DNA of 63,937 nucleotides, the filler included, from Dugesia japonica (Eukaryota): the NCBI GenBank assembly GCA_001938525.1. It is 6 parts of 6 records of this genome, joined end to end, with 100 filler letters (N's around TTAATTAATTAA, not from the genome) between each part and the next. Parts side by side here need not be neighbours in the genome. Positions count along the whole stretch, not along the records: positions 54,169 to 63,937 come from MQRL01631570.1; 5 more parts are not named here. The stretch is one strand, 5' to 3'. Shown here piece by piece: positions 632 to 63,879 of the stretch. The translations under genes were made by a program, and so were the position numbers. The notes below the pieces were generated by a model. The model was not told the DNA's origin, searched no databases, and worked only from the letters and a program-made list of their open reading frames with translations. Within the stretch, counting starts at the first letter, position 1. Each line of letters starts with the position of its first letter.

Positions 632-899
632 CTATATGGAATTGTTTACTAAATCTATTTGAAAAAAATTCTGAAAAACTAGATAAAAAGAAAACAAGAA
701 ATTTCCCAAGATAGGAATTTATCAATTCCATATGTCAGAATATGATGTAAGTCATAAACTCTTAAATTATGAAATACAATTGTTACTTCATGTTACTCGC
801 TTGATTTTCAAATCATACTGGATTCCTATTACTTACATTCCTAGTCTTTACTATTTTATCTAGTTTTAATATGAATTAATTATAGATTTTTCTAGTTTG

Positions 900-2062
900 G
901 GGTTAAATGAATTTTCATAAAACAAAGAAAAAGAAACTTTAACAGCAAAAGTTATATTTAAATTCCAACTTTACTTGTGGTAAATTAATTTAACAATCAA
1001 TAGAACTAACGTGGTCTGAATCCCGATCCGGACAAGCACAATGTCGTGATATTTATTTCTTTCATGGTTAATAGTGTTAATAATATTGGGTTTAAGCCGG
1101 AAACTGTTGTACGACCAAATTAAATAAAACAATTACCGTTGATGAATTTGTTCTAAGGATTTTTGTTGGAGGTTTGGTTTGAATATGAATTTTCACTTCA
1201 GAATTTTTTTAAGAGTTAATTTTTGTCTGAAATTGAAACGGTATTTATACTGTTTTTCTTTAAACCCTCGTTCTTTTATTGGTTACTTAACATCATACGA
1301 TTTTTCTATATGTTTCTATTGGCTTGATGGTCACATGATGTCTTTTTATTGGTGCTTATTTTGGGATTGCAAAATTATTGGTCAACCTTTGTATCTTCTT
1401 TCCTAGTCTTGCTATACTTTTTTAACTTAGATTTACGAAATCTCCGATTTTTTTTTATCAGAATTTTCTTAATTGCTAGATTTTCCACCCTGGAAAGTTG
1501 TCGTTTTTGCCATATTTCACTAAATATTTAATTTTCTTTTAAAAATAAATTATTTTAATTTGTTCGATTTATTTTATTTAAATAAATAAATTATTTATTT
1601 TATTTTCTTCTTAATTAATAATTTGATGTTAATTTTTTTGTTTCCTGCTCTGGAATTAATTTAAGTTCGTCGTTTTATCTTTCATTAATTAATTTAATTA
1701 ATTCCTTTAATTTATTTTCTCTTTCTCCAATTATTAGTTCAAAATGATTTTCTTAGAATTTTGCCCAATGAACTAATTGTTATTCATTATTTCTTTATCT
1801 GGCTGATAGCTTCTATTACTTCTTTTCTTCTTTTTGGTTTTCTTATTTTTGAGTTGTTTCTTGCTGTAACTTTAGATTTTCCTGGTTATTACGTTGGTTT
1901 TAACTACCAATCTTGGTTTTTCTTTTAATTATTTCTTTCTTTCAATGAACTGTGACTTTTCTTTGTTTGGATACTTTGTTTCCTCATTTGGTGACTACCT
2001 TTTCACTTTCGTCTTTAACTGCCACCATTTTTATTCTTCGTACTAGATGTTTCACCCCAACA
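900..2062 (-). mobile_element. Long-LTR family fragment (5' end, U3-like promoter region)
   Basis: Minus strand begins TGTTGGGGTGAAACA at 2062, the same terminus as copies at 25472, 40143, 44993 and 63879. Similar to 16900-17650 and 18490-18750. Left boundary approximate. Confidence 0.75.
1242..1381 (-). promoter_or_regulatory. Four-CCAAT plus TATA promoter module in long LTR
   Basis: ATTGG on plus at 1278, 1318, 1348 and 1377, with TATAAATA (minus) at 1242-1249. Same layout at 17309, 17348, 17378 and 17406 with TATAAATA near 17272. Confidence 0.55.
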
Positions 2063-3229: not shown

Positions 3230-4520
3230 AAGATGAAAATTTTGTTGCTCCATTTGTTGATCTGACTGTTGATACAGTTAATTATCCAACTGTTGATCTA
3301 GTTGGTTGCTTTATGGATTTTGTTGAGAAAATAGGTCATGAAGTGATGATTTCTGAAGATGAGGAAATAACTGGAGATAACCTGTATAATATTCAAGTAG
3401 GTGGTTCCGTTGATGAAACTGTAATTGAAACCAACTTGTATCGCTGGCATCAAATATTGAAGCTGGAGGTTTCAAGATTCAATTTGACTGAGATAATTCT
3501 ACCTTTTAATTTGATCCAGAGCTTTTTTAAGATAATTGATGAAATTAAGCTTGCTAAGATCCAGTTTGGAACTCGTATGGAATTTGATATGGATTATGAG
3601 GTTAAGACCTGTAGATTATCGAATAGTGCTGTTCTTTTGTCTGAAAACTTTTCAAAGAAGGTATCAAACGATTAAATGAGAAGATTATAGAAAGGTTAAA
3701 GTATGAAGTAGTTGGATTCTTAGTAAAATATTAGACATAAACTTTACTATAACTACAGTCAGTGACATAAGTAGGCTGACGCAAAATAGTTCAATCTCAA
3801 CGCTTGAAAACCTTATAAAAAAACTCCTATTCTTAATATTAAAAACAAAGACAATATTTGCTTCATTTATAGTATTATTGCTAAACTTAAAAAATATGAA
3901 GTTGGAAGAAATAATAAAATAGAGCTTCAAAATTTATATGTTTAGAACACAAGATTCTTTCATAAATGTTTTTCTATTAAAATTCCAAATAATAATTACA
4001 AAAATGATAATATTTAAACAAAGTTTATATCGATTTATAACTGATATATAACTACTCTGTCTTCTAATATGAGTTTCAATCTTCTTCAGCCATTCCAATC
4101 TACTGGGTTTGAGTTTTTCTGCAAAGTCTATAAGGACCTGGTATGGGCTTTCAAACTTAATTATTTTAAATGGACCTTCATATCTTAAACTGTCTTTCTT
4201 CAGCTTGTGTGGATCCACCCTTACCAATACTTTCTCGGCTTCATTAACTTGTCTATATGTTCATCTGTCAAATTTATATTTGCTTAACTTTTTATGAAAA
4301 TAAATTCTTTATTGCTTCAAGATAGAGAAAAATATCATTACACTGCAGTAATGAATTTAAAAACGATTTTTTGAATTGGTTTAAGAATAATATTGCTTAT
4401 GAGAAGCATGAACCACTTTGTAATAGAATTCAAACTGGTAATACGTTGTATACAATGCCTTCTGAGAAAGAAGTATTATTTGGGAATTACTCTAAAACTG
4501 TGACTCTTTCATTCGTAATT
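3230..4520 (+). pseudogene. N-terminal part of a Polinton/Maverick-type protein-primed DNA polymerase B (decayed, interrupted)
   Basis: Motifs across frames: SSWILSKILDINFTI, ILNIKNKDNICFIYSIIA, LLLQDREKYHY, FKNNIAYEKHEPLC and LFGNYSKTVTLSFVI. These match the GSGW / INIxNxDNxCF / HY / FxN...PFVI(YADFE) pattern that precedes the pPolB exonuclease. Truncated just before ExoI. Confidence 0.6.
3934..4290 (-). mobile_element. Ty3/Gypsy integrase C-terminal fragment
   Basis: VRVDPHKLKKDSLRYEGPFKIIK contains the GPF/GPY motif; it interrupts the pPolB remnant. Confidence 0.7.
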
Positions 4521-5391
4521 TTATTTTTATTTAATTTTATTTTTATGTTAGAGTTTCCCTATTACGATTGGGACCTATTTATTCCCGATAGGCTTGCCGT
4601 TCCATGGCGTCTCAATGTCTCTCGTCGGCCGCATCCTTAGAAGATAAATTTGATTTGTCAGCTAATATGCCAGCTAATTTATTATACGGGTTTGTATAAA
4701 GTTTAAATATCATCCGGTTGGTCTGCTTATCCAACACTAACTTTTATTTATAGTCAACCCCTAAATAAGATTTTAACTTGAACAATTTAAAAGAAATTGA
4801 ATGATTAAAAACATGTATTCGAGCAAACAGAACATCAATTAAAACTAAAAACTTCAATTAATAGCAACACTAGATAAAGAAAATGTTAATTAAGTCTCCT
4901 CATCTAAATCCACAGTGGACGACAATGATAATGGGTAAAATTCCTCAAAACAAATTAAATATGTTTTGCCGGGAGAGAGTATCAGGTCCAGGGCCAAAAA
5001 GTGGCCGATCAGCTGTCTACAGCGTGTTCTTTTTCTCTCCTGCGGGATGTATCGTAGTACATTGATCAAGATACTTGACATTATACTGTATTAAACTGAA
5101 TTAACTATGGAATCCGATAAGTTAAGATAAGCCCAGGAATTAATTAATATTGTAAAACTGAAAGCATTTATTCAGGGAAGTATACGCACCACAATTTTCG
5201 GGGTTAATTAAAAGTAATAATCATTTAAGGCATTAATACTATTATATCTAGTTTATCTGCAACGGGAAATACGATAATAGATTTTCAATTTTTCTTTTGT
5301 CCACTAAAATCTAATAAATACACCTTGTGTAACGGGAATTGTTACAAACTCCTGGTATCAAAATTAACCTTTTGTATAATAACTTTATAAG
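4520..5391 (-). mobile_element. Long-LTR family fragment carrying ORF-A and a remnant of ORF-B
   Basis: ORF 4890-5081 is homologous to ORF-A copies at 39 kb, 43 kb and 61 kb. MERQAYRE*IGPNR near 4570-4615 resembles ORF-B RERQRYQTWTGPDR. Probably continues at 12028-12752. Confidence 0.65.
4890..5081 (-). CDS. Long-LTR orphan ORF-A (63 aa, intact)
   Basis: MSSILINVLRYIPQERKRTRCRQLIGHFL...; acceptor cag|tataATG directly upstream; homologs at 38932-39136, 43062-43247 and 61164. Confidence 0.6.
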   Translation of the reverse strand: MSSILINVLRYIPQERKRTRCRQLIGHFLALDLILSPGKTYLICFEEFYPLSLSSTVDLDEET

Positions 5392-6520: not shown

Positions 6521-6585
6521 GATGAGGATATCAGTACAAACGATGGATATGAGGAAGTATATGAAAGCGTTTTTGAAAGGCAGTA

Positions 6586-29700: not shown

Positions 29701-29719
29701 TTAAATAATTTGTGAAACA

Positions 29720-30110
29720 AGAAGATTCAATGGCCAAACGAACTAGAAGAAGTTTTTAATGAAATGAAAGAAGCACTAATGATGTCTGCAATGTTATGTT
29801 TTTTAAATACAATTAGAAAATTTATTTCGGATACGAATGCGAGTTTCGACACGATTGATGTAGTACTATCTCAAAAAGACAACAATGGACTGAAAGAGTA
29901 ATTGCATATGGGTCACACGCAATAACGAGTAATGAGAAAAGATATTGTACTACGCTGAAAGAATTACTCGCAATTTACTACTTTTGTATTCATTTCAAAC
30001 AACACTTATATGGGAAGAGATTTTTTATTTATACGCTAAATACCAAGAACCCAATCACATCACAGTTTCAAACTTGGCTTAATTATTTGAGCAGTTTTGA
30101 TATAAAATTT
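29720..30110 (+). pseudogene. Extra Gypsy RNase H fragment
   Basis: Paralogous to 28150-28540 (DTNASFDTI...VIAYGS...KELLAIY). Confidence 0.8.
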
Positions 30111-35560: not shown

Positions 35561-37406
35561 AGTAAATTATCACCTAAAAGATTCAAAGAGCATATCTAAT
35601 TCGATAAAAACTTTGACATATAAACATTAATACTGTTCTCAACCATCTATTATTCAATATTAATAGAAAACAACCCTAAAGGAAGAACTTGCTTTTTGAT
35701 TTATTTCATTAAGGATAACGNTTGACGATTATTATACTAACATTAATGAATTTTATGTTTGTATAATCGCATCAAATCAATTGAAAAACATCTGTAATCA
35801 TTTTATATGACATGATTTATTTTGTCATAATCTTAAAATTTAGATAAACAATAAGTGACTTTTTTAATTTTTAAATAGATTTTAATTTAAATATTTAGAA
35901 AAATGAAATATTCAACTAAATGTTATGAAAAAAATGGAAATTAATTGAATAATGAAAATTTAATCCGGTTATTTTTATTTAATTTAAAATATTAATTGAT
36001 TTGTGTAGTGTTACTTATGATTTTAATTTGGATTTAGAGTAAAATAATATGAATGATGCATGTATTTTAGTTAAANNNNNNNNNNNNNNNTTAATTATAT
36101 TAATATTTTAAAAAATCTTGTTTAAATTCATTGTTTGAATTAAATGTAAACGTTGAAATTTCAAAATTGATTTTGATTTGTTTTAGAAATTACACATACA
36201 AAATATAGTTTTATATAGTTTTAAAATATGTGTAGATTTTCTTTAAGTTTCTTAGAATTTTAATAAATTTATATAAAAGTTTAATAAATATACTAAGTTC
36301 CATAACCTTTCTTGGATTTCATTAGATTTTCACCAACCATCCAACTAAACCATTAAATAACATGAATTATGCTCTATATTTTAAGAATTATATGAAAAAT
36401 ATAATGAAATCTAATAGGATTTGATTTCATTAAATTTTCACATTTTATTTTAATTATTATTAACAATGTATACTTTTCACATAATTTCACTTGTGAAATT
36501 TGAATTTATATGAATTTGATTATGATTTTATTGCTTCACTTACGATGAATTTGTCGAATTTTACTTAATGATGAATTAAATTTTGATAATTAGTTTAATA
36601 AATACAATTAACTTATTACAAATTTAATGTTAAAATTTTAAAACGTTGACTTTGAATTTTAATGTTCTCATGGACCAACTAATATTAAGAACTTGCTTTT
36701 TGATTTATTTCACTAGGAATAGAGATTATCGATTTTTATTACTCAGCATAAAATCCTCTATCGAAATTATATGGTTTCCTCATTAGAGATTACAATTATC
36801 CCTGATATCAACCAATAATAATAACTTGTTTTTAATTTTATTTCATCAATAATAAAGTTTGACGACTTTTAACCGTATTAATAATGATATTTTAAAATCT
36901 TTTATCGACTTTATGGTATATTGGTAATATGATCAGATGAAACCTCTACTATTTATGATTACTCAGATAAGATTAAATCAGAGCAATTCTTGCAACAACT
37001 CAATTGATTCAAATGATTGACGGTTAGGTCCCCAATTGCCCGGCAACTGTGGTGAACCATACACTCGATAAACTTTGGTTCAGTGACGAACAAATTAATA
37101 ATTTTATGGACACTTACTTGAATGAATATAGCTTTGTTCGTATTGANNNNNNNNNNNNNNNNNNNNNNNNNNNNNNNNNNNNNNNNNNNNNNNNNNNNNN
37201 NNNNNNNNNNNNNNNGGGATCCCTTGAAGAATTTTCCTAATGTCCCTGATTAAGTTATCGGTATAGAGTGGTTGACTTCCAACGCTTACTTGAAGTACAC
37301 ACTCGTACACCTCTATTTTTGGGTTCAATATTTCCCCATTATTTTAATTCAGTGAATATAAACAAATTCTAACAAAAAAATTTAAAAGAAGTTTATTTTT
37401 GTCAAT

Positions 37407-37766
37407 CTACATATAATTTAGCGCCTCAAGGTCCAACCACTGAGTGGGCTCGCCATTCATAAAATCGAAGGCGGCCTCATCGTCGTCACTGTTCCACCTT
37501 GTCCAAGCGCGCAGTTCTAATTGCGTGGACAAATCGGCGATGTAACCGTTTAGGAAATTAATTTTATTCTCCAAAATCTTCTTGGTCCGCTCGGCCAACT
37601 ACCCTTGTTTTTTGATTATGATGTCTAGCTTTTTAATTAATCTATTTTGTTGGGTGAGATGTCGTAGTAAAGCGAGCTCATTTTGCCTCTTAATGTCTGT
37701 CCAGAAGGAGCTTTTGGATAAGGCGATGACACCGGCGGAGACTAGTTGGTAGTCGTATTCGTGGCA
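37407..37766 (-). pseudogene. Long-LTR ORF-D exon
   Basis: ttag|TG CCA CGA: PRIRLPTSLRRCHRLIQ...DDDEAAFDFMNGEPTQWLD, homologous to 59638-60020; one stop and a frameshift; AATAAA follows. Confidence 0.7.
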
Positions 37767-37860
37767 CTAAGAATAAAGAGATGATGAGTCAACATAACGA
37801 GACAATCAAGATATCGAAGTAGTTCTAGTAAGATTTATTCAATGCAAAACATTTAAATAT

Positions 37861-38215
37861 TTAATTTCGAGATTGGGTGACTTTGTCCATCATTAATGGC
37901 TCCAGGAGAATACTTTTTCTTAACTCAAGAACCTCGGTGACCAGCTTATTTTTACGGTCATGGAGGAACTCAATAATATCTGCAAAAGATTCTACCAGGT
38001 GTTTCCAAGCACGCTCCTGAGCATGGTAGACCTCTGCTTCTACTCAGTAACTACGGCATTTATTCTGATACCTCTTTACTTTGGCGTTTGCCGTGGCTAT
38101 TTCGGCCTGCTATTTTCGTTTTGCTAATTTTTAAAGATCCCAGGAAATATCTATGCCCTTGCTATCTTCTCGGACCTTTTTTGTGGGAAAACGGATTGAT
38201 TCAGCGATGAATGCA
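37861..38215 (-). pseudogene. Long-LTR ORF-C exon (coiled-coil, ends DKVTQSRN)
   Basis: ttag|TG CAT TCA; homologous to 60133-60491; stops and a frameshift; AATAAA follows. Confidence 0.7.
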
Positions 38216-38426
38216 CTAAATAAGATACTTGTGTAATTAAATTAGGGATTAAGATGATAGAGTAAACAAGGAAAAACTTATCTTATTTCGTAATTCCAGA
38301 TTTATAAGTTAAATGACACAAAATAATTTTCATAAATATTCACCTATGACCAAAATTACGAAATTGGACAAAATATTTAAGACAGATAAAACCGATCATT
38401 TAATCGATGACACGGAAAAACATTTA

Positions 38427-38821
38427 TTAAAAATAACAAAAAAATGTTATGTTAAAAAATGTTTTTAAAAAAAAGATAAATTCAGTTCTCTGCATTTTCG
38501 ACGTTCTCCATATTCTCTGTTTTTTGCTGGAAGCCGGTTCCCTAATGCCCCAAAGTAAGTTGGTGATAAACGCACTTACAGTATGGGGTGGGCCGGAAGC
38601 TCTATATGCGAACTGGGTTACCAATTGCTGTATGGGACCACTCCAATTTTAATAATTCTGGCGTTCACCGAAATCGTGAATACGCCCAACTAAGGCCTTT
38701 ACAAGTGGCAAATTTGTGCGGTCTGCCAATACGCCAGCGTCTCTGTTATAGGGGTTGACGTGTCGCCGAAATATCATTCTTCGAGTCCGCCTATCCCATA
38801 ATCTTTCCAAGATAATGTTCA
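38427..38821 (-). pseudogene. Long-LTR ORF-B exon
   Basis: ttag|TG AAC ATT: NIILERLWDRR...NLPLVKALVGRIHDFGERQNY*NWSGP...SAFITNLLWGIREP; homologous to 60755-61039 and 43365-43756. Confidence 0.7.
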
Positions 38822-38931
38822 CTAAAAATTTGANTATAGAATTAAAGTAAATAACAGATTAATCGTATAAATCAAGAAAAAACATTCAGATTATAAAGGG
38901 TTTTATTTTCACGATTAAATGAAGATTGGGA

Positions 38932-39136
38932 TTAAGTGTCATAGTCCACGTCCACCTTGGTCACAAAGCGGAACATTTCGCCGAGGCGTGATAAATATGT
39001 CTCGTCTGGGTGTTCTACTATTTGGGGAAACAGTAGATGTCCAATTAGTTGCTTTCTGCGCGCACAATGCCTTTCTTGACGGATGACATTCAAAGCTTCG
39101 CTTAATATATCGGACTTAGCCGTGGGTGTTTCAGAT
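38932..39136 (-). pseudogene. Long-LTR ORF-A exon
   Basis: SDILSEALNVIRQERHCARRKQLIGHLLFPQIVEHPDETYLSRLGEMF...; start codon appears mutated to AAG; AATAAA follows. Confidence 0.65.
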
Positions 39137-39274
39137 CTGAATAATATTATAGTATTATAATATCATAGTATTGATCACCGAAGGTGATAGCTAATGCAGG
39201 CAAACTTTATCTATAATAAAGCGAAACATTTATGACTACCGGAGTCGCTATTGGTATTAGGGGTAATAGCTTTA

Positions 39275-39490
39275 CTAATTCAGTATTAACAATATTACGA
39301 CGATAATAACCATAACGTTAGTAGCAATTATAATATCGATAATTATAGTGATAATAAAGTAATTACTACAAAAATTAATGATGATAATAATGACGATAGT
39401 AATAATAATAATGATAATAACGATTATAGTAATAATGATAGTAACTACATAAATAATAATGGGAATCATAATAAAAATCATGATAACTAC

Positions 39491-39556
<66 letters not shown>

Positions 39557-39606
39557 NNNNNNNNNNNNNNNNNNNNNNNNNNNNNNNNNNNNNNNNNNNN
39601 NNNNNN

Positions 39607-39674
<68 letters not shown>

Positions 39675-39700
39675 TGTTAATAATGTTGATAATAATAAAA
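39275..39700. repeat. Degenerate and perfect (AAT)n tract inside long LTR
   Basis: Same relative position as 61320-61830 and 42000-42930 in other copies. Confidence 0.85.
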
Positions 39701-42700
39701 ATTCAAATTCTACAATATTTGCATTGTTAGGGAAAATAGGTGAATTGTGACACCAATGATGACAAAGATATAGTAAAGATATTCTCGATGGTGTAAATAT
39801 TAACAAATTAGTTATGATCATATAATAAAAAAAAAATTTTTGGACACTATGTTATTGAAAATGTTAATGATAACATACATAATTGAACAGTGATAACTTT
39901 TAACATTACGCTGAAACTCAGCACGACTTTAAAGCTAACGAACAAGGTATCAGGCATGATATAACCACCCACAAAAAGGACTTCTCACAATAACAATTCC
40001 NNTCTTAGTGACAATCACAAGCGCCAGCATGGAAAAGGATCATTCTTCACTCTTATAGGAAAATCAATAAACTGCATCTAACTGAGAATTAATGTAATAA
40101 ATGAGAAGCGAAGTAGTGATGGTGTGTAACCTTTTACACACTTGTTGGGGTGAAACACCTGGTTTTAGAAAAAAGAAAACAGGGCTAGGGGCTCAAATTA
40201 TAGAAATAATGAAGAAATGGGGTTGAAAAGAAAATTAATTAGGAATACGTATCAACTGCTAACATAATAATAAATATTCTAATAAAAAGAATAAAAAGAA
40301 TCGGAAGAAAGGTAAACTACAGAAAGAAGTCATCAGATGAATACACTCAACCTCGATCAACTTCAATAATTAAAAAAATTTTAAGTTATTAAGACAAAAC
40401 AAGAAAAATATTATTGGAAAAATAATTAATTAGCAGAAAAATATTAATTAATTTTAGACAAAAAAGAGTTAAAATTAGGAAAAAATCAGTTTTGGTCGAT
40501 TTTCTCAGCCCAGGAAAATCACAGAGACTTGTAATAAGAAAACTGGAAGGGGAAGGTAACTGGGCAATAAAAAAGTCCAATAAGATTATCGTGACATCAA
40601 CAGAAGGCTTGAGAAAAGGTCCTGAAGTTTAAGCCAATTATATTCCAGAAAAGAAAAATAAAACAAAGACAGTACAATCACAAGGTGCTCCAAAAATAGG
40701 CATCAATGATAGAAGAATGAAGAATTTAAAGAAAAAATCTGAAGATTGGCACCAAGACCAATAAAAACAAGAAACTCAAAAAAAAAATATAAGCCCAATA
40801 GCGATTGTGCCGGGTTGTATTTTAAACCACCCCCCCCCAAAATTTAGAAGAAAAACACACTTTTTTATATTCATTTATCAATTGGGTTATTATATCAAAC
40901 TGTTATTACGACAATCTACTTCCAGACGATTCATAAGGAAAGCATATTATCAATGTACCATTTGTAAGATCAGCATTTCTGATAAATTAATTTATCTGTG
41001 TCTATCCCAAATTTGTAGCAACAGAAATTCTAACAAATAAAGGAGGAGACGGAACAATAAAATCTATCAAAATAAATTTAACCGAGATTGAGATACATTC
41101 TTTTGACGATTAAAACCATTGAAGAAATCTTTATTTAAGCAGTAAGTGTCTTTGTTATATTATGTTATTCTATTATGATTTAATGCCATTATTAATAAAC
41201 TTGTTTTTAATCTGATTTAGGTGTTATTTTATTAATAATTCTTTTAATTTACAGATAATAAAAGCAACTCGTAATACATTAATGAAAATTAATTTTTGAA
41301 CTTCATTAAATTGACCTGAAATGACAAACTCAGTTCACTACAAAGTCGATAATATTGAATAATCTGAAATACTCTCAACTCTTTGTAAAATTTTGGACAA
41401 AATCGTCATCATAGGATTAGGCAATCACATAACCCATGGCACATGTATGTCTTTTCTATTGTGTGTGTATCTAATTGGCAGCACCGATTACTGTATATTG
41501 GTAAGCATGCTATGAGAAAATATTGTTAAACATCAGTATGAATCATTTCCATTTTATTTAATGAACGCTGCCAATGGCTAAGTTAATTCGAGCTATGTTA
41601 AGACAATGGAATCTATCAAATCTAGGTTACATTCATTTCATTACCTTTACGAGATCATCAACGTCGTAAGTTGGAATTTTTTCACAGTGGATCTTCTATT
41701 TACTCAGACATTATATCCAGATGAAGTATCCGGACAAACATTCTAGTTAATTATGAAAATGACTTATATGAGATTTATCTTTGGCTTTCGGTAAAATTAA
41801 TATTAACTATTCTCTCGTTTAGTTACAAATATATAATCATCAAGTAGAGTCAGGCTCTTCATTATCTACCCTGCTCCGAATGAATTTCTTGACTTACATT
41901 TATTTTTCAACATCATGATGACAGCTGGAAATAATAATAGAACAGAATTATTTGACGTTGTAGATGCAATTTTTGGTCACAACGATATTCGGTTGACATC
42001 ACTGTTATGATCATCAGTACCTATTAACACTATTCTATTCATCATTATTATAATTAAAAGATTTAATATGGTTAATGATTTAATTTATACGTCGGTTATT
42101 GATTCTAAATTATTGTTCTAATTTTTACGAGTATCAGCAGCGGGATTTTGTCACTATTACCAATATTACAATTATTAACGATCTTAGCATTTGTCTTTAT
42201 TAATTTAATGTCATTTCGTCGTTAGAAATGTGATTGTTAACAATTTCTCCCTTCAATTACTAATTTTCCAGTTTTGAGCACTAGGTTAGAAACCCGGCAT
42301 CGGTGATTCCAATCGAACCATTATTATGATATTATTCAACGATATTGTTAGTGCGCTCAGGATCTATTATTATGACTATNNNNNNNNNNNNNNNNNNNNN
42401 NNNNNNNNNNNNNNNNNNNNNNNNNNNNNNNNNNNNNNNNNNNNNNNNNNNNNNNNNNNNNNNNNNNNNNNNNNNNGGTGTCACTAACCGTATTAGTAGT
42501 TCCTATCATGATGATTTTCAGGGAAAGAGATTTATGATACATTTAACTGGTTGATTTTATAGTACGCACTAGTCATATGATCATTATTATTTCTTGATGG
42601 CAAATGGCAATGATAAAATAATTACTGTAGTATAATTCTTAATAAATTTAGAATCATTCGAACCCTGTTTAATTAAATCACTAATATTATCGTATTATAT

Positions 42701-43061
42701 CATTGATAAGATTACTATGACTTTTAACTGCTAAATGATGCTAAATGTTGCTGGTTATTATTATCGTTTCCTTATTATTGTGATTAATAGCAATATCGGC
42801 TGTTTGGCCAACAATATTACAAGTAGCACTATTATTATTAAACACAATCACCAAANNNNNNNNNNNNNNNNNNNNNNNNNNNNNNNNNNNNNNNNNNNNN
42901 NNNNNTATATTACCTCTTTTATATTGATATTATAAATATTACCAAAAATCATTTTAGCTAAATCAAAATAAGAGTCTAGTCCTCAGTGCGCCTCACCCTT
43001 AATAGAATACTTTGTAGAATCTATTGTTCGATCCATCACATCCAATTTTGTCTACTAACCC

Positions 43062-43247
43062 ATGACCAGAATTTTGATAGATACATTACGGTGGATCCGT
43101 CATAAAAGACAACGAGGAAGGCGTAAGCAATTACTGGCCCACATTCTTTCTTTAGGACGGATTGAACCTCCTGACAAAACTGACCTAAGGTGTTTCGTCG
43201 AGATGTTCCCGTTAGAGCATCAACTGGATATTGACGCAGATTCTTGA
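43062..43247 (+). CDS. Long-LTR orphan ORF-A (61 aa, intact)
   Basis: MTRILIDTLRWIRHKRQRGRRKQLLAHILSLGRIEPPDKTDLRCFVEMFP...; AATAAA about 35 nt after the stop. Confidence 0.6.
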   Translation: MTRILIDTLRWIRHKRQRGRRKQLLAHILSLGRIEPPDKTDLRCFVEMFPLEHQLDIDADS

Positions 43248-43364
43248 TGGTAGTATCGTTAATATAGTGANGTTGCAATTAATAAATTTTTCATGTTTAA
43301 TTTCGTTCGCAGTTAATTGCTTAATATTCAATCCTGGTGTTAATTATGATTAATTTTAGCTATA

Positions 43365-43756
43365 ATGGAATACAAATGGAGGTTGTACTCGATCGAAGAA
43401 CCGGCCGCACAATATTCAAACGCTATAAGAACGCATACAATAGAGATGCGGGTGTTTTCGCAAAGCGTTCTAACTTACAGGCTGAAGAAGCGCCACGCCT
43501 TCTATGACTGGAAGCGGCCTGATAGGGCACGAGCTGTTTATCATGCGGTTACCTCCACCCACCTAGATGCCAATTGTGAACAAGAAACCACCCGGACATG
43601 GCAAGAAGGCCTATCCGTCGTATGTCATCACTAATCAACTACCATCTTTTCCTAATCTAAGTGCTTTCGTTCAAGATCATTTGTGGAGTGTCCGAAACAC
43701 CGAAAGTGGCGGTAGCTCGGAGAACGCTACCGTCAATATTAGTAGTTGTCTAATGG
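43365..43756 (+). pseudogene. Long-LTR ORF-B (divergent, frameshifted)
   Basis: ttttag|ctataATG; KKRHAFYDWKRPDR and LSAFVQDHLWSVRN align to ORF-B of other copies. Confidence 0.55.
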
Positions 43757-43856
43757 NNNNNNNNNNNNNNNNNNNNNNNNNNNNNNNNNNNNNNNNNNNN
43801 TTAATTAATTAANNNNNNNNNNNNNNNNNNNNNNNNNNNNNNNNNNNNNNNNNNNN
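43757..43856. other. Artificial contig-join spacer
   Basis: N44-TTAATTAATTAA-N44. Confidence 0.97.
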
Positions 43857-44839: not shown

Positions 44840-47450
44840 TGTTTCGCAATCACAGAAAGATTCTTGCCAAAAATATTTTGCAAAATAATTTTTTCAAAAC
44901 GTCGATCTAGAAAAGTTTATTAAACGGTGTGAAATATACTTTGAGGCAAAGAACATCGCTGTTAAGAAAGATCAGAAACATTGGGTAACATGTGTTGGGA
45001 TGAAACACCCAGCGTGAGAAGAAAATCAAGGCCGGGGGCCCTAGTCATAAAATAATAAAAAAAGAAGTTATAAAAAAATCGATTAAGAATAACTAACAAT
45101 AGTGGAAAAATGACAATGATTACATTAATACAAAAACGAAGGAAAAAATAAAATACTAAATGGAAGCATCAGATAGATAAAGTATTGATCAAAATTAAGC
45201 GATTAATTAAAGAAAATTACAAATATAAATAGACGAATACGAAAATGATCAGAAACATAATAATTAATTAATAAAGAAAAATTAATTAATTTTAACGAGA
45301 AAAGAAAATAAATTAAGCGAAAATTAGTTTTTCGAAAATATTTCCGCTCAAGAAAGTCACAGAAACATGTAAAGAAAATTGGAAAGGGGTGATATCGGGT
45401 CAATAAGATTTCGTAACCAGAAAATTTTATTACCAATAAGACGGTTCTTACAAGGGTTAGAATAATAAGCCAATAAGAAACCAGAAAAAAAATAAAACAA
45501 AGNAGAGAAGATCACATGGTAACTTAAAAATATCCACCAATGGAAACTCAAAAAATCTACAAAGAAATCTGAAAATTGGCACCATCGCCAATCAGAAGCA
45601 AGAAATTCGAATTAAAAATAGTAATCCAATAAGAAAAATATTACCAATTTTTTAAAATTAGTAAAAAAGTAATTTGAAAAATTATTTTATTGATTACTTT
45701 CGAAAGGAGAATCTTTACTATTTCGTTATTATTATAACTTCAATCAAAGGGAAAACCATAAATCATTACTTAGGAAAATTTTATTAGAATGTATTAATAC
45801 GAGCTTTAGAGTTTATACTACAATATAGGTTAAAAATTACTGACGTGAGCAGTGATAACCTTCGCGAGTAAGAAGCATAGTAGCATTTTTTCCCTAAATA
45901 TATCATAATAATAATCCATACTTTATCCATTTAAATTTATCAACAGAAACCGTTGCAGAACTTTTGATACAAAGAACAGAAGATCACATGGTAACTTAAA
46001 AATATCCACCAATGGAAACTCAAAAAATCTACGAAAAAATCTGAAAATTGGTATCATCGCCAATCAGAAGAAAGAAATTCGAATTAAAAATAGTAATCCA
46101 ATATCGATGATGCAGAGTTGCATGGAAAAATGGTATTTAAACTCCACAAATTTTAGATGAAAAAACTAACATTTGTGAAATTTATTAGTCATTACAGCAC
46201 TGTAGCCTAATTTTGCTTTGAAGAAAATAGTTTACGAGAAAATTCGTGGAAAATTACCAATATATTACAAATCGTAAGACAGCAATTTCCAAAAGTNGGA
46301 TTAACTGTAATTATCATCAAATTATAGCAGAAGACTAGTCGATCTGAACAAAAAGGTAGCAACTAAATTAGAAGGCAAAAAATCTCAATCAAAATTTAGT
46401 TAAGAATCATCCCTCAGTTCATTCACAGCCCGTTGCAGAATCGAGTTAAAGATAACAGTAAGCAAAAGTTTTATGTTTATTAATTTTGTAATGAAATTGT
46501 GTCATATCTAATATAATATTTAATCAACATTGTTCATCTCTAGTAAATACTGCCTAAAACCAGTTTAATATTTTTATTGGAAGAGGAAATTTATTGCCAA
46601 CTGGTAAAATCGCTTCTGTTAAATTTTAACTGACATAATTTTTCCTCAATTTTTACTAACTCCTAACCAAAATAATTGCAGTTATCGACCTGGATAACCC
46701 ATGATTTTCATTTCTCGTAAAACCGAGGCTTGTACTATGTATAATAGGTACAAACTAATCTTGTCTGAGTAACATGAATCAAGAGTCATTAAAACTCCCT
46801 TGCAAGTGTGCAGCCGGCATGTAAATTTGACGATAGAACTGCAGTGAATGTGTGTGTTAGAAAACTCTAGTTGGATATCAGCGTAATTATCTGTTGGTGA
46901 TTATTTACAATTCTCGGCTATCCTGCCTCACATGTGCAAAACCTTCTGATCTCAATCACTTTTCGGAAATTAACTATCATGAGAGTTCAGGGATTTATTA
47001 GGGCATATCTATTAATATGCTTCGTGACACCTACTAGTGCAATAGATTTTTCAGGCTAATATTGATACTGTCGCCAGTAATTGCCAACTGATTGAATGAC
47101 TATTGTTTCTGCAACTATCATCAATAATTCCGATAAACACCATTAATTCTGTAAGAACTGTAGTGTAGAATAAAATACATATTACTAATAACGTTTTGTT
47201 TGTTCATTCAATAATCAGATAAATAAGGGAAAACTAATGAACCCAAATATAAAGGTATGCGAGTGTAAACCTCAAATATAGGTTGGATGTCAATCACTCT
47301 ATACCGAAAACCTAATAAGGGGCATTAGTTAAATTCTTGAAAAGGTCCTCTGAGAGCTGTTTTTCCCCATCCGTGTTTTTTCTATCACAAACTCAGGTGG
47401 GACCCCAACACATGTATGCTTCATGAAGATTTAATTGAAGCATATAGTTG
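44840..47450 (+). pseudogene. gag: Gypsy gag N-terminus split by solo LTR
   Basis: DLEKFIKRCEIYFEAKNIAVKKDQKHWVT|CMLHEDLIEAY reads through when 44993-47414 is removed; homologous to gag at 5621. Confidence 0.8.
44993..47410 (+). mobile_element. Solo long LTR (2418 bp, internally deleted)
   Basis: TGTTGGGATGAAACAC...GGGACCCCAACA with 4-bp TSD CATG (44989-44992 and 47411-47414); lacks ORFs A-D; donor A|GTAAGC at 46457/46458. Confidence 0.9.
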
Positions 47451-49620: not shown

Positions 49621-50640
49621 ATGAAATCAAGTCATTTCTATACGCTTTTACTTAGTAATAGCTGTCCACTTATTCATCCTGAGAATAATGCTAGTAAATT
49701 CATTGTCNAGCTACAAAATCCAATTTATATGGATTATAGTTTGGAAGTTNCAATGATGGACTTCACCTTTATATATTCACCATTTCCGGTATATAGCAAG
49801 TCGAAAATTGAATATATTACTGCAAAAAATATATTGAATGAAATAACTGTAACAATAAATAACAAGGAAAAAACACAAAACAAAAACTTTGAAATATTTG
49901 AAAATAATCTCATAAGATTTTATTGTGAATTTCCATATGTTGTCATATTTGAAGATGGACATATCGCACATTCATTTGGATTAGGATTTAAATCTAANAA
50001 ATTATCAAAGAAATTTGGTCATATCTATACAAACTTTACAAACGATGACACAGTAAAAAACGTAAAAATTAAAGTAGCTTATACAATGGTGAATTATCAT
50101 ACTTTTCAGTTTAAAGATGATATATACATATCAGAATTGGAACAATTACGTAAATATTTGACCGAAAATTGTACTCAAATATTTAAGAAATGTCTTATAA
50201 ATGCGGATAAATATGTTGAATTTGAGCTACAAGATGACGTCAAACAAGTTGTATTTGATAATGTCTTGACAAAAACATTGGGATTAGAGAAACAACATTA
50301 TTCTCCTGAAGATATGAAGGGAGGTCAGTTCAAAGCTATTACCAATTCGAAAATAATGAAATTACATCAGCAAATGTTCATCTATAGTAGTCTTGTTAAA
50401 TCTATAATTGTAGGAGATGTTAGTGTACCTTTATTGAAAGTAATATGGATAGAAAAGTATGATACTGATGAAGTAGTGCAAATAATAGTCGAGAATCCAA
50501 TGTATTTACCCATTGCAACACCATGTATAAACAATATAGAAATTAATATACGCGATGATAAAGGAAAATTACTCAAGTTTCCAAAACATTCAAAAATCCA
50601 TTTAACTTTACATTTTGGAAAACTAAATAATGAATCCTGA
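49621..50640 (+). CDS. Polinton minor capsid (penton) protein
   Basis: FYTLLLSNS...HPENNASKF at the N-terminus; MFIYSSLV...VGDVSVPLL...PMYLP...IEINIRDDKG...LTLHF at the C-terminus; 339 aa open. Confidence 0.85.
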   Translation: MKSSHFYTLLLSNSCPLIHPENNASKFIVXLQNPIYMDYSLEVXMMDFTFIYSPFPVYSKSKIEYITAKNILNEITVTINNKEKTQNKNFEIFENNLIRFYCEFPYVVIFEDGHIAHSFGLGFKSXKLSKKFGHIYTNFTNDDTVKNVKIKVAYTMVNYHTFQFKDDIYISELEQLRKYLTENCTQIFKKCLINADKYVEFELQDDVKQVVFDNVLTKTLGLEKQHYSPEDMKGGQFKAITNSKIMKLHQQMFIYSSLVKSIIVGDVSVPLLKVIWIEKYDTDEVVQIIVENPMYLPIATPCINNIEINIRDDKGKLLKFPKHSKIHLTLHFGKLNNES

Positions 50641-51073
50641 TATTTTTTCAATGTACAGTACTAGTCAAGCAGGTGGAGAATTACCTTACTTTCTTGAAAA
50701 ACAGTATGGATCTGGTTGGTTGAGAACAATAGGTAGATTTGCTTTACCGATTCTTAAACGTATTGATTCTTTTAGTATGAAAACAGCTCAGGATGTACTA
50801 GCTAATGACGGAAANATACTACCAACATTGAAATCAAATGCATTAGCTGAACTAGGAAATGTTATGTCATCATTACCTAGCGGAGTAACCAATATGATTC
50901 CAAAAGTAGCAAACATATTACCGCAAAGTATAACTAATAAAATACCATCAGAAATAACTAATATACTATCAAATCAAGTTCAAACACCACAAAATAGTAG
51001 AAAATGTACGAAATCTCATGGATCACGTATAAACAAACGAATGAGAGGTCATGGAACAATGTTTGAAGAATGA
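50630..51073 (+). CDS. Polinton core / membrane-lytic-like protein
   Basis: QAGG and QYGSG adenain-type cleavage sites, amphipathic GWLRTIGRFALPILKRI, basic tail; position between the capsid genes. Confidence 0.7.
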   Translation: MNPDIFSMYSTSQAGGELPYFLEKQYGSGWLRTIGRFALPILKRIDSFSMKTAQDVLANDGXILPTLKSNALAELGNVMSSLPSGVTNMIPKVANILPQSITNKIPSEITNILSNQVQTPQNSRKCTKSHGSRINKRMRGHGTMFEE

Positions 51074-52242
51074 TTTGCGGTAAAACTGAATTATGTATTT
51101 TTGATGAAAAAAAAAGGATTTAAATGAAAATGGTACTTTCGAAGATGTCTTTCCTATGAATTCAATTTCTGAATCACGAAGTGACGTAGAGTTTTTTATA
51201 AATGGATCTCAAACAGAATGTTTGGATTTGAATGATACTTTATTGTATATTAACTTGACGGTAGTTGATAAGGCTGGTAAAAATTTGACTGACACTCATG
51301 ATGCAGTTCATAGTAATTATATGTTGCATACGCTTTTTAAGAATGTAATTCTTTCCTTTAATAATTTCAAAATTGAAGGTGGAAATGGATCTTATCTTCA
51401 CAAAGCAATAATTNAAACTATAATAAATTATAATGGTGATAGTAAAAATATCTGTCTTGCAGCAATGGAATATGGATCAGAAGCAAATAGAAAGAAGTCT
51501 ATTAAAATATCAAAACAATTGGCTCTATGCGATTCATTACAACTCAATTTCATGGATCAACCGAAATACCTTATTCCTGGTGTCAATGTTCATATTAAGT
51601 TGAAACGATCAGAAGCTGATATTTGTTTGGAATCTGCAGCCAATACATCTAAATATGTATTTCTAGATGCAAAATTAATGGATAGACGTGTACTTGTTGA
51701 ACCTTCAGTTCTAATTGCTTATTAAATGGGACTAAAAAAACAAAAAGCTGTTTATCCGATAAGAACCAAGGATGTCGTTGCATTTGCAATTAGTAAAGAT
51801 AGTTCATCGTTTTATAAGGAACAAATCTTTGGTGATCGAATATAATGGTAGCTATAAAAGCTCGAGTTCAACATTTCAAAATCTAGATGCTGTTTCTGTT
51901 TCCTTGTCNNNNNNNNNNNNNNNNNNNNNNNNNNNNNNNNNNNNNNNNNNNNNNNNNNNNNNNNNNNNNNNNNNNNNNNNNNNNNNNNNNNNNNNNNNNN
52001 NNNNNNNNNNNAAGAATATGAATTGTGGAATAACACTTCAAGATTTTAAGGATAATTATCCTTTCTTTACATTTGTTCGTGCTCCAGATTTTGATATAAA
52101 TCATAGTCAATTACCTCAACAAGAAAATTTAAGATTATAAATCAAGTTTGCCAATGCTTTAACAACATTGGCATATGTTATAATTTATGGAGTATTTGAC
52201 AAAGAAATTCAGATGAAAGAAAACGGAACAGTATTAGTGTAA
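51070..52242 (+). pseudogene. Polinton major capsid protein (double jelly-roll)
   Basis: KTELCIFD start (KSELDLF type), VEFFING...LDLNDT, HTLFKNV, QPKYLIPGVNVHIKLKR, AVYPIR, GITLQDF...FTFVRAPD, NLRL*IKFA; frameshifts. Confidence 0.8.
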
Positions 52243-52270
52243 ACAATATTTTGTGTAATTGGTACATGTT

Positions 52271-52686
52271 ATGAAGTAAGTGTTTTGTTTATATTAATGA
52301 TTTTTATTTTAATAGTACTATTCAGATTGATCAGATTGCAAAAAGTGGCTTGGATCAGCTTCTTTATGTGTTTATGCGTTAGATAAACTTCCAAAATATA
52401 TTCCAGTAAACAATGCTTTAATTATCAATACTCATACATCAAATCTAGGTGGAGAACATTGGATAGCTGTTTACAATAAACCTGCTCAAATACTAGTATT
52501 CGATCCATTAGCATTTTATCATCCATCAATATTGGTATCTCACTTATCGAAAATACCAAAACCAATAGTCTACAATAAAATCCGATATCAAGATCCATTT
52601 AAAACTACATGTGGTCAACACTATTTATTATAGTTGGAAAAAACAACATTATACTTGACAATATTTATTTTTTCTTGTAAAAAATA
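52271..52686 (+). pseudogene. Polinton adenain-like cysteine protease (with putative 40-nt intron at 52276-52315)
   Basis: ATGAA|gtaagt...aatag|TACT gives MNTIQIDQI; then VYALDKLP, IINT...GEHWIAV (His), FDP (Asp) and QD...TCGQH (Gln/Cys). Confidence 0.85.
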
Positions 52687-53327
52687 AATGTTCTTTATTG
52701 AAATGAAATCTTTGTTATTTATTAANTATTTGTAAGTAATATGCTAATAATACATGTTTTTTTATTATTTTGACACGTATTATCAAAAAAAATTAGTTTA
52801 AAATACTGCAACGTAATATGTCTGCAATATTTTAAATAAATTTGACATTTTAAAATACACACATACTCTAATTTGATTGGTTNNNNNNNNNNNNNNNNNN
52901 NNNNNNNNNNNNNNNNNNNNNNNNNNNNNNNNNNNNNNNNNNNNNNNNNNNNNNNNNNNNNNNNNNNNNNNNNNNNNNNNNNNNNNNNNNNNNNNNNNNN
53001 NNNNNNNNNNNNNNNNNNNNNNNNNNNNNNNNNNNNNNNNNNNNNNNNNNNNNNNNNNNNNNNNNNNNNNNNNNNNNNNNNNNNNNNNNNNNNNNNNNNN
53101 NNNNNNNNNNNNNNNNNNNNNNNNNNNNNNNNNNNNNNNNNNNNNNNNNNNNNNNNNNNNNNNNNNNNNNNNNNNNNNNNNNNNNNNNNNNNNNNNNNNN
53201 NNNNNNNNNNNNTATTATGAAGAACAAATATGTCATGCTATGTTATGAAGAAGAAATGCTCTATATTATCAAGAAATGTTCTATGTTATGAAGAAGAAAT
53301 GCTCTATGCTTTTTTCATTTTTCTGAG

Positions 53328-59398: not shown

Positions 59399-59637
59399 TG
59401 TTGGGGTCCCACCTGAGTTGAGTGAAAAAGAACGTGGCTGGGGAAAAACAGCCCTCATGGGACCCGTCCAAGAATTTACCCTGACGCCCCTAGGTCAGGT
59501 TTTCAGCATATGGTGGTTGACCTCTCTCTTAATGGGAGGTGCACGCCCACAAGCCTTTTATTCGGGTTCACTGTTTTCCCTTAACATACGCAAAAAATTC
59601 AAGTCAAAGATATTTAAAACGTTTATTAACATGATAT

Positions 59638-60020
59638 TCATAATTCCTCCAACACACCAGGGTCTAACCACTGGTCTGGATCGGTGGTCAAGAAGTTGAA
59701 CGCCACCATATCATCGTCGTCGTCCCACTGAATCCCAGCTGGATTACCAATCTGACGAAATAGGTCAGCGATATATTGTTTTAAAAAATCTATCTTTCTC
59801 AGCAATGATTGCTTGTTTTCTATTTCCAGGGCCTTGATTTGGGCCGCCAAATCGTTTTGTTTTCGAACTATGAAATCCAACTTTTTTATACGTTTGTCTC
59901 GCTGGGTAAGATGTCGAAGAAGGGCTCGGTCTGTTTTACGCTTTAAGTGGCGTTCTAGCAACAGCCAGCGCATGATACGATGACATCTTCGCAAACTAGT
60001 AGGAAACACGATACGAGGCA
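59638..60020 (-). CDS. Long-LTR ORF-D exon (127 aa with spliced AUG, intact)
   Basis: TACTAAC branch-like motif, ctttctttag|TG CCT CGT; basic N-terminus, coiled coil, WDDDDD...FNF...QWLD tail; AATAAA 10 nt after the stop. Confidence 0.7.
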
Positions 60021-60132
60021 CTAAAGAAAGTTATAATTAAGTTAGTAAATTCAAAGTTTAAAAACGGAGACAACAAAAATTTATAAATGAAGAACATTTA
60101 TTAAAGTTAATCAAATTATAAACAGAGATGAT

Positions 60133-60491
60133 TCAGGAGCGGTTAGTCTGCGTGCCTTTGTCGATAAAGAGAGGAGTCAAAGGAGTAGCGGCCCTTAGCT
60201 TCAAGATATTTTCCAATAGCTGGTTCTCACGTTCCTGATAAGATATGATGATTTCCGTAAGAGTTTAAACCTGTGTTTTCCACACCCTCTCCTGATTCTG
60301 GGTAGCTTCTACTTCAGATTTATAAGCTAGACACCTCCGCTTATATCGTTTAACATTAGCTTCTGCTGCTGCAGACTCGGCTTCCCACCGTCTTTTGGCG
60401 AGTCGATACAGATCTTACGTGAGTTCTATATCCTCACTGGTTTCCCGTAGCTTTTTATTCGGGGCCTGAGATCTATTCAATGATGAATACA
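60133..60491 (-). pseudogene. Long-LTR ORF-C exon (coiled coil, ends DKGTQTNRS)
   Basis: tattttcag|TG TAT TCA; YSSLNRSQAPNKKLRETSEDIELT*DLYRLAKRRWEAE...PLFIDKGTQTNRS; two internal stops, frame kept; AATAAA downstream. Confidence 0.7.
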
Positions 60492-60754
60492 CTGAAAATA
60501 CAAACGTAATAAAGAATGACAGAAACTTAGCAGAATTATAATTTTATTCAATGGGGACAGACTGGTGTACTAAGGACAAAACCAACACTGAGGGGTATGT
60601 CCTATTTATTCTACGTAACAACCTTACGTTGGAATATTATCGTTTTCTAAACATGAAGACTGTGAAATCCGACCCATCTTGTTATTAAAATAGAAATTTA
60701 TTCGACTTAACATACAAAGTTATATCATAATTCAACAGTAAGTAAGAGAACTAT

Positions 60755-61167
60755 TTATTCAATTTCTACATGGGAACAAGGTTTATTAGTTTTCATTATT
60801 AGTGTTGACACTGGGTCCGTGTTTTCAACATAAGTTACTCCAGTTGGCTCCCTAACCCCCCAGAGGAGATTAGATATAAAAGCCTGCACAGCAGGAGCTG
60901 GGGCGGGAGGGGGAGTCTGATATTGGAAAGAGGTTGCCAACGTTCGATCAGGACCTGTCCACGTTTGATAACGTTGACGCTCTCTAAAGTCCCAGATGCG
61001 AGCCACAATTGATTCTACTGGAGGCAAATTTGACAGCAAAGATCTGTCACATCCGGGTGTTCAATTCTCCCTTTGGTCAAGAGGTGTGCGATCAATTGTT
61101 TTAATCGAGCAGTTTGTCGTTGTCGCCTTATTCATCGAAGGGTACGACTCAACTCGGCTGGCATGAA
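60755..61167 (-). pseudogene. ORF-A/ORF-B deletion fusion
   Basis: MPAELSRTLR*IRRQRQTARLKQLIAHLLTKGRIEHPDVTDL (A) joined out of frame to NLPPVESIVARIWDFRERQRY...AFISNLLWGVREP (B). Confidence 0.65.
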
Positions 61168-62886
61168 CTAAATAAAAGAAACTAATTTTAAATCATCCCT
61201 TGATTTAGTCCTTTAAAAAAGAGCGGAACCATTATTACAGCCGGATAGCATTACTAAAGGACCCCGACGTCAGTCCTCTGAATGGGTTCAATTTAAACTC
61301 ATCAGTCATTGTTAGGAAACTTAACCCTGTTCGTAAACCTCGTAATAAAGATTGTAGTGATAAACATGATAACTTTTGATCCTACGAATGATGACATGTT
61401 CTGTGGTGATGATAATAATAACCATAACAGTACGGTGAACCATAATAGTAAAGAGGGTATCACTCATAAGGTGAATAATAGCGGGAATAGTGTTAAACAT
61501 AACAGTCACTTTAGTTATCAGGTTGCTGATAATCGAGGTAGCAACAATACTATTATCCCTGACATCCATGGTAGTATCACTAATATTAACAACACTAGTA
61601 CGGATCACAAGAATAATAATAATGATAATAATCCTAATAATGGTGATAATAATAATGACAAGGAAGATACCAATAACCCTAGCCATAATGATAACCATAG
61701 TATGAATAATACTGGTACGATTAACAGTAATAATGATAATGATAACAATGATATTAATACTAATCATAATAATAATAGTAATGATAATAATAATAATAGT
61801 AGGAATAAAGTTAATCCTAAAAATCATAAAATTTGTATTTAAAGTTCCGCGTGTTGTGGTTGCCTAGTGATTTTTTCTTCGTTAAGTGTCACTATCTCGA
61901 TCCTCTCGATGATAGTGTGTCAGACTCTTAGTATAAGCTCAGTGCATGCGTGTATACATGGAACCCAGAGTTGAGTGGCAGATGTTATATTCATGTATAT
62001 TTAGTTAACTCTTATACACACATACTATCCTACGGGAATTGCAAATATCGATCTGACACTCTTATGGATTCTAGTGGAATTAGTGACACTTAAAATGGTT
62101 TGTAAAGTACACACAACCTGGTAGTCATTTCTGTCTATCCATGTATTTCGGCATGGTGTTTATGCAATTTTTTTGGATTAAAAGATACGAATTTGGGAAT
62201 AAAAAATAAAACAATACCTTTTATTTGTCATCGTCATGGATTATCTACAACCTATTTCACCAGGTAAAATTTTGGTTCTATCGTCTATAATTTACCAATC
62301 TTTTTTTACTCAAGAATTTAATCAATTCTCGGCTTCAACAACTTTTCCATGTTTCAGCTATTCATCATCAAATCGCTGTTACACGTGGAATTCTAACTGA
62401 TCGGCGATTATTGTAGGTAGTCTAATAATAACTTAATATTGAAACATTTAGAATTATATGCATTTGTAACTAATTGAGGTGAGTCGTAATTTGGGATTTT
62501 CCTTTTTTTGTAAATAAAAAGTTTGAATTTTATTGCTGGTTTAATTTGAATATTGTTAATACGAATTTTGCGTGTCAAATATAACGGAATTTAAGTTTAT
62601 GATTTTTTATACGTTAATCTTATTTATTATGACGAGTGGTAAAACCAATTTACTTTCCAGTTTTTTCTTCTAAGGTTATCAACAGAGAACTAGTTTAAAT
62701 ATATATTTTTTTGTCAATATAATCGCAAGGTATCGGCAACATATCTGTCGTGGTCATTATATTTATCCGAAACGAATAATAACATAAGGTTTTTTTATAT
62801 AGCTTAATGTATTATGATAAATAACATTCAACAATTCTTTTATAACACAACTTTAGCAAAATCAAAATTAATATTTTACTTTTTAA

Positions 62887-62893
62887 TATTACT
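62887..62893 (-). promoter_or_regulatory. Putative leader-exon splice donor A|GTAATA
   Basis: Follows CGTTGCAGAAT as in the 46 kb copy (A|GTAAGC); 41 kb copy has A|GTAAGT. Confidence 0.5.
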
Positions 62894-63877
62894 GTGGAAT
62901 TCTGCAACGAGTTATTTTCTGACACGGGAGTAGACTTCAGGAAAACTGGCTAATGACTTCTGTTGAAAATCCTTCTTCTAGAGTAGTTGAACTAATTTCT
63001 TCTTTAATTCTAACAAAGATTCCGATTAATTAACTTAGCAGTTATCTCGATCTTACCACTTTAAATTTTAAAATTTGAATATCCGATCCTGCTTGGAAAG
63101 TTTCTAATGCGATTTCCTTTTTTCCGTTACCAAGTTATTACACGAAAATCAGTCAGTCACAGTGTTGTATAAAGAAAATTTATTTTTTAAGAAGTTATTT
63201 CACCAAAGTTTGTTGCTGCTTATATATGTCTTTAGTTGCATCCCGACCGTATTCCTGTTGGTTGGTTATTTTTAATTTGAATTATTTGAATTTTATCGGA
63301 TCTGGTGCCAATCTTCTGAGAATTCGGGAGTTCTGATCGGTGGATATTTTTAGACTGGCACCTGATAGTTGTGACTTTGTTTTATTTTATTTTTTAGATT
63401 TCTTATTGGTCCGATCTTGAAGACCCTGCAGCAACCTTCTGGATGGTGGAAAGGTTTTCTTCCTAATAAATCCTAATGCTTCTTGTTACTTTCTTTCCGG
63501 ATTTTCTTACCCGGATCCTTTCTGACTTTCCTGGCCGGAGTTATTCATATAAAATAGATTTCCCACTAATTTTACTTCTTTTTTTTTAAAATTAATTAAT
63601 ATTTTTCTGTTAATTAGGCATTTTTTCGTACTGGTCTTCTTGAGTTTTTATTATGGGTTTCTCAATTCTTTTATTTTCCGATGCTCCCGTAAGTTGTCTT
63701 TATGTCCACCGGTTCGTTGTATCCAGCTTTGATTGTGTTTTATAACTCTTTAAGGATTATTTTCGTTATAACCTTCCTAAATTAGACTTGCTTTCTTCTT
63801 TGAATTCCATTACGAGTAAATTTGCTGGTTCTAGGTTCTGAGTCTTATTTTCTTTCCTTACGTGTGTTTCACCCCAA

Positions 63878-63879
<2 letters not shown>

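Follow-up and report, generated by a model that had tools for sequence, protein, structure and literature searches.

An LTR-like element of the planarian Dugesia japonica with candidate short alternative exons and a predicted splice-assembled start codon

The window, by which we mean the whole stretch of Dugesia japonica DNA that was analyzed (63,937 nt), is AT-rich and crowded with the remains of mobile elements. Within it lie six diverged copies or fragments of an LTR-like element, all of them decayed, and conservation is judged here from these six. Other elements are present as broken gypsy-type gag, RT, RNase H and integrase sequences at 5621-11616, 18657-19022 and 27479-30200 (Pfam matches at 11194, 27479 and 29859), and as a decayed Polinton/Maverick-like gene row at 48600-52700 (+), with an integrase (rve, E 9e-8), an adenain-like protease (Peptidase_C5, E 0.0017, under the cut-off) and ORFs that we take to resemble capsid genes. 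ORF fragments at 8900-10030 (+) presumably resemble a hAT-type transposase; a Pfam search of 9413-9865 gave no match. Features of the LTR-like copies are as follows, with positions counted along the window.

59399..63879 (-): copy 1, LTR-like element of 4481 bp, with TG..CA ends, 9-bp inverted ends and a 4-bp duplication
63219..63409 (-): promoter-like region (putative function), with CCAAT boxes at 63409 and 63312 and a TATA-like box at 63226
63051..63057 (-): competing donor-like site, GTAAGA, kept in 3/4 copies at 164-184 nt upstream of the A-preceded donor
62893..63190 (-): putative non-coding leader exon ending in A at 62893, with its 5′ end guessed from the TATA-like box
61321..61827 (-): low-complexity frame rich in Ile, Val and Thr, with its own ATG; likely the ORF-A of the initial annotation
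61015..61167 (-): 5′ part of ORF E, with an acceptor-like site at 61167, its own ATG at 61164 and one in-frame stop
60755..61033 (-): 3′ remnant of ORF B, its acceptor missing in this copy
60133..60491 (-): ORF C, with AG|TG at 60491, 118 codons after TG, two in-frame stops and AATAAA at 60102
59638..60020 (-): ORF D, with AG|TG at 60020, 126 open codons after TG and AATAAA at 59627
59399..59412 (-): last 14 nt of copy 1, preceded by a pyrimidine tract and CAG; acceptor-like
37215..39900 (-): copy 2, with E at 39135-38932 and AG|TG of B at 38821, of C at 38215 and of D at 37766
40143..43757 (+): copy 3, with the LTR start at 40143, a donor at 41141, the E ATG at 43062, the B acceptor at 43360 and the B ATG at 43365
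44993..47410 (+): copy 4, complete element of 2418 bp, with TG..CA ends, 7-bp inverted ends and a donor at 46457
47397 (+): terminal acceptor-like site of copy 4, the same tract and CAG 14 nt before the end
640..2062 (-): copy 5, 5′ part of the element, with the element start at 2062 and a donor-like site at 975 (A at -1)
4500..5300 (-): fragment 6, with a weak donor-like site at 5240 (A at -1), the E ATG at 5081 and the B acceptor AG|GG at 4760

Both ends of copies 1 and 4 fit the TGTNR pattern that is given for gypsy LTRs in the excerpted text of PMC2836005, with TG..CA termini and short inverted ends (7-9 bp). A Ginger DNA transposon was considered and rejected on the length of these inverted ends, which in Ginger are put at ~40-270 bp (same excerpt). 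Copy 4 interrupts a gag-like frame and is bounded on both sides by a clean CATG target duplication; it is without E, B, C and D ORFs. The 4-bp target match of copy 1 sits within an (ATT)n microsatellite tract and is therefore ambiguous. Copy 2 carries stops and frameshifts, copy 3 terminates at a gap, and B of fragment 6 has an early stop. No internal gag-pol region, primer-binding site or polypurine tract adjoins any copy in the window, and no full parent element is present within it. We infer that the copies are solo or truncated LTRs of such a parent, copy 1 being apparently a solo LTR with no internal region flanking it, and that the element descends from an autonomous gypsy element. The LTR-like nature of the unit was not recognized in the initial annotation, nor was the gypsy env precedent taken up below.

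ORFs in the element follow the order E-B-C-D. ORF E occurs in four copies (61164, 39135, 43062 and 5081), is 39-55% identical to the 43-kb copy and 60-67 aa long where complete, and has its own ATG in three of the four; the proteins are basic and share a conserved core, KQL..H.L. A deletion in copy 1 has joined the 5′ part of E to the 3′ part of B, and the B acceptor was lost with the start of B. Site 61167 belongs to E and not to B, and the B copy at 4760, where GG follows the acceptor, had gone unnoticed. Between copies 1 and 2, C is 44% and D 49-71% identical. No homology was found between C and D, and C, D and E are not detectable paralogs. Seven of 9 ORFs have AATAAA 9-52 nt past the stop, against a background of 0.158 (p ~7e-5), and one of the other two has the signal overlapping its stop codon. 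As read from the sequence, the arrangement of E, B, C and D is the layout of alternative last exons.

Neither B, C, D and E nor the Ile-rich frame matched a Pfam or PHROG family at cut-off, and a search for protein relatives with D, C and the B alignment as queries found none. The Atlas search of D gave no usable match, and the Atlas matches of E were rejected as bacterial only and under 0.9. No loci matching these ORFs were found in viral and metagenome contigs, and Rfam returned 0 matches. The AlphaFold model of B had a mean pLDDT of 43.8 and was not used for a fold search. Our guess is that E, B, C and D are small orphan proteins that regulate the host cell or the element. Around the Ile-rich frame, at 61297-61863, both strands are open for ~180 codons over a degenerate ATT-type repeat, one Ile/Val/Thr-rich and the other Asn-rich; copy 2 is similar.

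The initial annotation had proposed that a non-coding leader ending in A is joined to exons beginning in TG, creating the AUG of ORFs B-D by splicing. All eight motifs behind this proposal are in place, with AG|TG at five of five acceptors and A at -1 in three of three donors. The five acceptors should be counted as three exon types (C twice, D twice and B once), and not as five independent events. C and D are each known from copies 1 and 2 only, and both copies of each have AG|TG (60491 and 38215 for C, 60020 and 37766 for D). Outside the elements TG follows 6 of 108 acceptor-like sites, a background from which the chance of finding it at C and D together is ~0.003. The frame that follows TG is, as proposed, the conserved one, with homology beginning at the next codon; the other two frames close within 0-55 codons. 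Over D codons 1-24 after TG, 16 of 24 residues are identical between copies 1 and 2, with 8, 3 and 19 mismatches at the first, second and third codon positions; in the first three codons every change is synonymous. At identical residues with redundant codons, third bases differ in 11 of 13 cases for D and 17 of 23 for C, and are thus saturated. The G of NTG is nonetheless kept in both copies of C and both of D, which is expected if the codon encodes Met. Copy 1 C contains no Met at all and copy 2 C only two, at its end; in D, copy 2 has Met only near its end, and Met16 of copy 1 is absent from copy 2. We consider the acceptor evidence for C and D good.

For B the pattern varies. Of the three copies that keep the B acceptor, TG follows in one (38821), CT in another (43360) and GG in the third (4760); in copy 3, B has its own ATG (43365) just past the acceptor. 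The A+TG start thus fits the sequence of C and D, and does not extend to B as a whole. The exceptions named from the outset were an own ATG in ORF-A, likely the Ile-rich frame, and in the 43-kb copy of B; an own ATG stands in both. Note that copy 1 alone has a donor and TG acceptors in cis: 37766, 38215 and 38821 are on the minus strand and donors 41141 and 46457 on the plus strand, and a leader donor sought in copy 2 (37215..39900) was not found.

CCAAT, TATA-like and AATAAA motifs all occur inside the repeat. The TATA-like box of copy 1 (63226) is 334 nt upstream of the donor, and in 3/4 copies such a box lies 275-334 nt upstream. In copy 1 the leader is ATG-free for 349 nt, has a stop 7 codons upstream of the donor, and ends where GC falls from 0.40 to 0.16 across 62893; a GC drop falls at the A donor in 4/5 copies. 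ATG-free runs upstream of the donor measure 189-349 nt in 4/5 copies (P 0.009-0.05 each) and 91 nt in the fifth. Stops lie 4-20 codons upstream of the donor in 5/5 copies; the distance of 7 codons reported earlier applies at 62893 and 41141, and at 46457 it is 20. Copies 1 and 3 place the donor ~990 nt from the LTR start, as does copy 4 after discounting an internal duplication. The latter is a tandem duplication of ~470 nt within the promoter-like region of copy 4, 45480-46110 (+), spotted by eye.

All five candidate donors (62893, 41141, 46457, 975 and 5240) have A at -1, two of them (975 in copy 5 and 5240 in fragment 6) having been chosen by position. A precedes 233 of 620 GTAA sites (38%), so that the chance of A in three of three donors is ~0.05. 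By a rough splice matrix, donors 41141 (copy 3, tied) and 46457 (copy 4) rank top among 72 and 78 GT sites, site 975 ranks 8 of 55, and the copy 1 donor, 62893, is weak and falls outside the top 10 of 85. An A at -3 of the would-be AUG (4/5 donors) was discounted as too weak a sign in an AT-rich genome. The donor-side evidence for an A-ending leader is, on these figures, weaker than the acceptor-side evidence. Across the six window copies, then, the supposed conservation of -1 A and +TG is seen as TG kept at C and D, with B varying and the donor A set against a background of 38%.

From these features we consider it probable that the LTR-like unit is a self-contained transcription unit. Transcription would begin in the CCAAT/TATA-like region inside the unit, and a non-coding leader would be spliced via its A-ending donor to one of several alternative last exons. 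C and D, and in one lineage B, would then take their AUG from the final A of the leader and the TG of the exon. An own ATG just after the acceptor would serve as the start of E and of the copy 3 B, the split codon being one of two start modes. For C and D, A+TG = AUG is the most economical reading, and it is strengthened by the saturated third positions, the ATG-poor leaders and the poly(A) signals.

It had also been suggested that the split codon keeps the ORFs silent in unspliced RNA. This is true but redundant: on unspliced RNA a scanning ribosome would meet 45 ATGs between the copy 1 donor and the C acceptor, and 47 before the D acceptor, and would not get as far as C or D in any case. We regard the split start codon as probably a by-product of the exon layout that has persisted, and not as a lock that acts on unspliced RNA.

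For RNA runs X5 and X8, about a quarter of each run was covered. Records on the element numbered 23 of 13.6 million and 13 of 11.6 million, a depth too low to reveal splicing, and the absence of a junction among these 23 and 13 reads should be read as too few reads to show one. Contig records on copy 1 number 5464 (run X3) and 831 (run X1), mostly less than 95% alike, and mark the element family as large; these contigs span the spacers too and look like DNA. Of 20 contig joints 15 were listed, and none of these connects 62893 with an acceptor. Among the 40 of ~1240 positions with other letters that were listed, none falls on the junction bases, which carries no information on whether TG or A is conserved. 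At the C acceptor, the alignments of 25 X3 records break off 6 nt into the intron side.

Several other explanations of the TG acceptors were weighed. The phase-1 splice partner of C and D might be a coding exon located elsewhere, such as one in the internal region of the full element, in which case the NTG codon would be internal and the leader donor would not be the partner. That the five B-D junctions, together with B at 43360 and 4760, keep one phase while +1/+2 of B vary is consistent with such an exon, as is the position of the full element outside the window. We think this unlikely: an internal codon has no reason to hold TG, above all a third-position G, in two unrelated saturated exons, no conserved upstream ATG exon is found in the window, and, read in phase 1, the sequence before either donor candidate is closed or without a usable ATG.

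An equally unlikely explanation is a near-cognate start (GUG, UUG or CUG), supplied by the upstream GTAAGA donor or by a trans-spliced leader ending in G. It would likewise require TG to be retained, and GTAAGA is a better intronic match than the copy 1 A donor, with G at -1 in copy 1 and T or C in copies 3 and 4. Three different codons would be needed in three families, however, and near-cognate initiation is weak in animals. The GC drop, moreover, falls at the A donor, and GTAAGA could equally be an intron within the leader or a promoter element.

More doubtful still is that the acceptors are real and TG and A coincidental, drawn from few copies. Only three exon types are involved, B is inconsistent, the donor A has its high background and the pattern was noticed post hoc. 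Set against this are the value of ~0.003 obtained for C and D alone, before retention across saturated copies is counted, and the fact that the ORFs still need a start, which C is without. Trans-splicing of a complete AUG to these acceptors is highly improbable, for although flatworm spliced leaders end in an ATG able to start translation (in the portion of PMC12582326 consulted), the full-AUG frame closes after 0, 4, 4, 21 and 55 codons at the five acceptors and is not the conserved frame, as had been pointed out before.

Beyond the A+TG start itself, the sites at the very end of copies 1 and 4, conserved in two copies, suggest that a terminal acceptor could let the same donor skip the cassette to reach internal genes. 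A wider reading, which we hold only tentatively, is that the LTR may be a multi-gene splicing cassette: the leader would lend its A to several orphan exons, each with its own poly(A) site, and the terminal acceptor would let the donor skip the 3.5-kb cassette for a gag-pol message. If so, solo LTRs would spread genome-wide as self-contained accessory-gene units.

Other observations concern the same end. The terminal 150 nt of copy 1 have by far the highest summed contig depth. AATAAA at 59562 (-) in copy 1 aligns with a TATA-like AATATAAA at ~47246 (+) in copy 4, ~165 nt before the end, and this site may mark an additional poly(A) signal or an additional promoter. Folding of the 3′ 200 nt was no better than that of shuffled sequences (z 0.31 and -1.21), which leaves a structured packaging signal unsupported.

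Splicing is already known to build start codons in Ty3/gypsy-type elements. In Drosophila gypsy, according to the excerpted text of PMC2585583, the env start codon is spliced from a donor-side AT and the G of env, and the part of bioRxiv 2023.08.03.551782 that was available describes env of the springer subclade of insect endogenous retroviruses as spliced to an AU dinucleotide. The division is AT|G there and A|TG in the D. japonica element, where donor and acceptors lie inside one LTR-like unit, the splicing is predicted, and a single donor would be shared by several short alternative exons that carry poly(A) signals of their own. The gypsy product, moreover, is an envelope glycoprotein, whereas the ORFs here are orphans of 60-130 aa with no family match above cut-off. 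The A|TG form with several exons is therefore likely a variant of a known mechanism, the splice-built start codon being already known from fly gypsy env.

A protein-coding gene within an LTR is likewise known from MMTV, whose sag gene encodes an accessory protein (PMC11998498, in extract). That is one retroviral gene, in contrast to four unrelated ORFs behind a shared leader, and the likeness is one of layout, with none expected in sequence. Gypsy elements with long LTRs occur in planarians and plants (PMC6431247 and PMC11410931, both in extract). Burro/GYPSM1 of planarians and Ogre of plants, compared by description only, share multi-kilobase LTRs and accessory ORFs with the present element; Ogre LTRs measure 1.9-6.5 kb, and the Burro internal region reaches up to 25 kb and the total >30 kb. 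In both, accessory ORFs are placed in the internal region, and none is mentioned in the LTR in those passages of PMC6431247. For the terminal acceptor-like site, an analogy is offered by BARE1, in which spliced RNA is translated while another RNA pool is packaged (PMC3735527, in extract); BARE1 is a plant element of another family, and its splicing, as described in that extract, favors Gag and selects no LTR-internal ORFs. A literature search, with subscription journals and Repbase outside its scope, found no LTR-internal multi-exon cassette described. The predicted LTR gene cassette is a more unusual part of the element than its predicted splice-built start.

LTRs are treated as regulatory DNA, and solo LTRs are normally dead ends. 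If the LTRs of this family carry four conserved coding exons, solo LTRs can still express element proteins. ORF finders miss genes without a genomic ATG, which may explain the absent relatives in protein searches. The exact junction coordinates are available for testing with existing RNA data, and the arrangement would carry splice-built starts beyond the one env gene known in fly gypsy elements, to a design of one donor and many exons.
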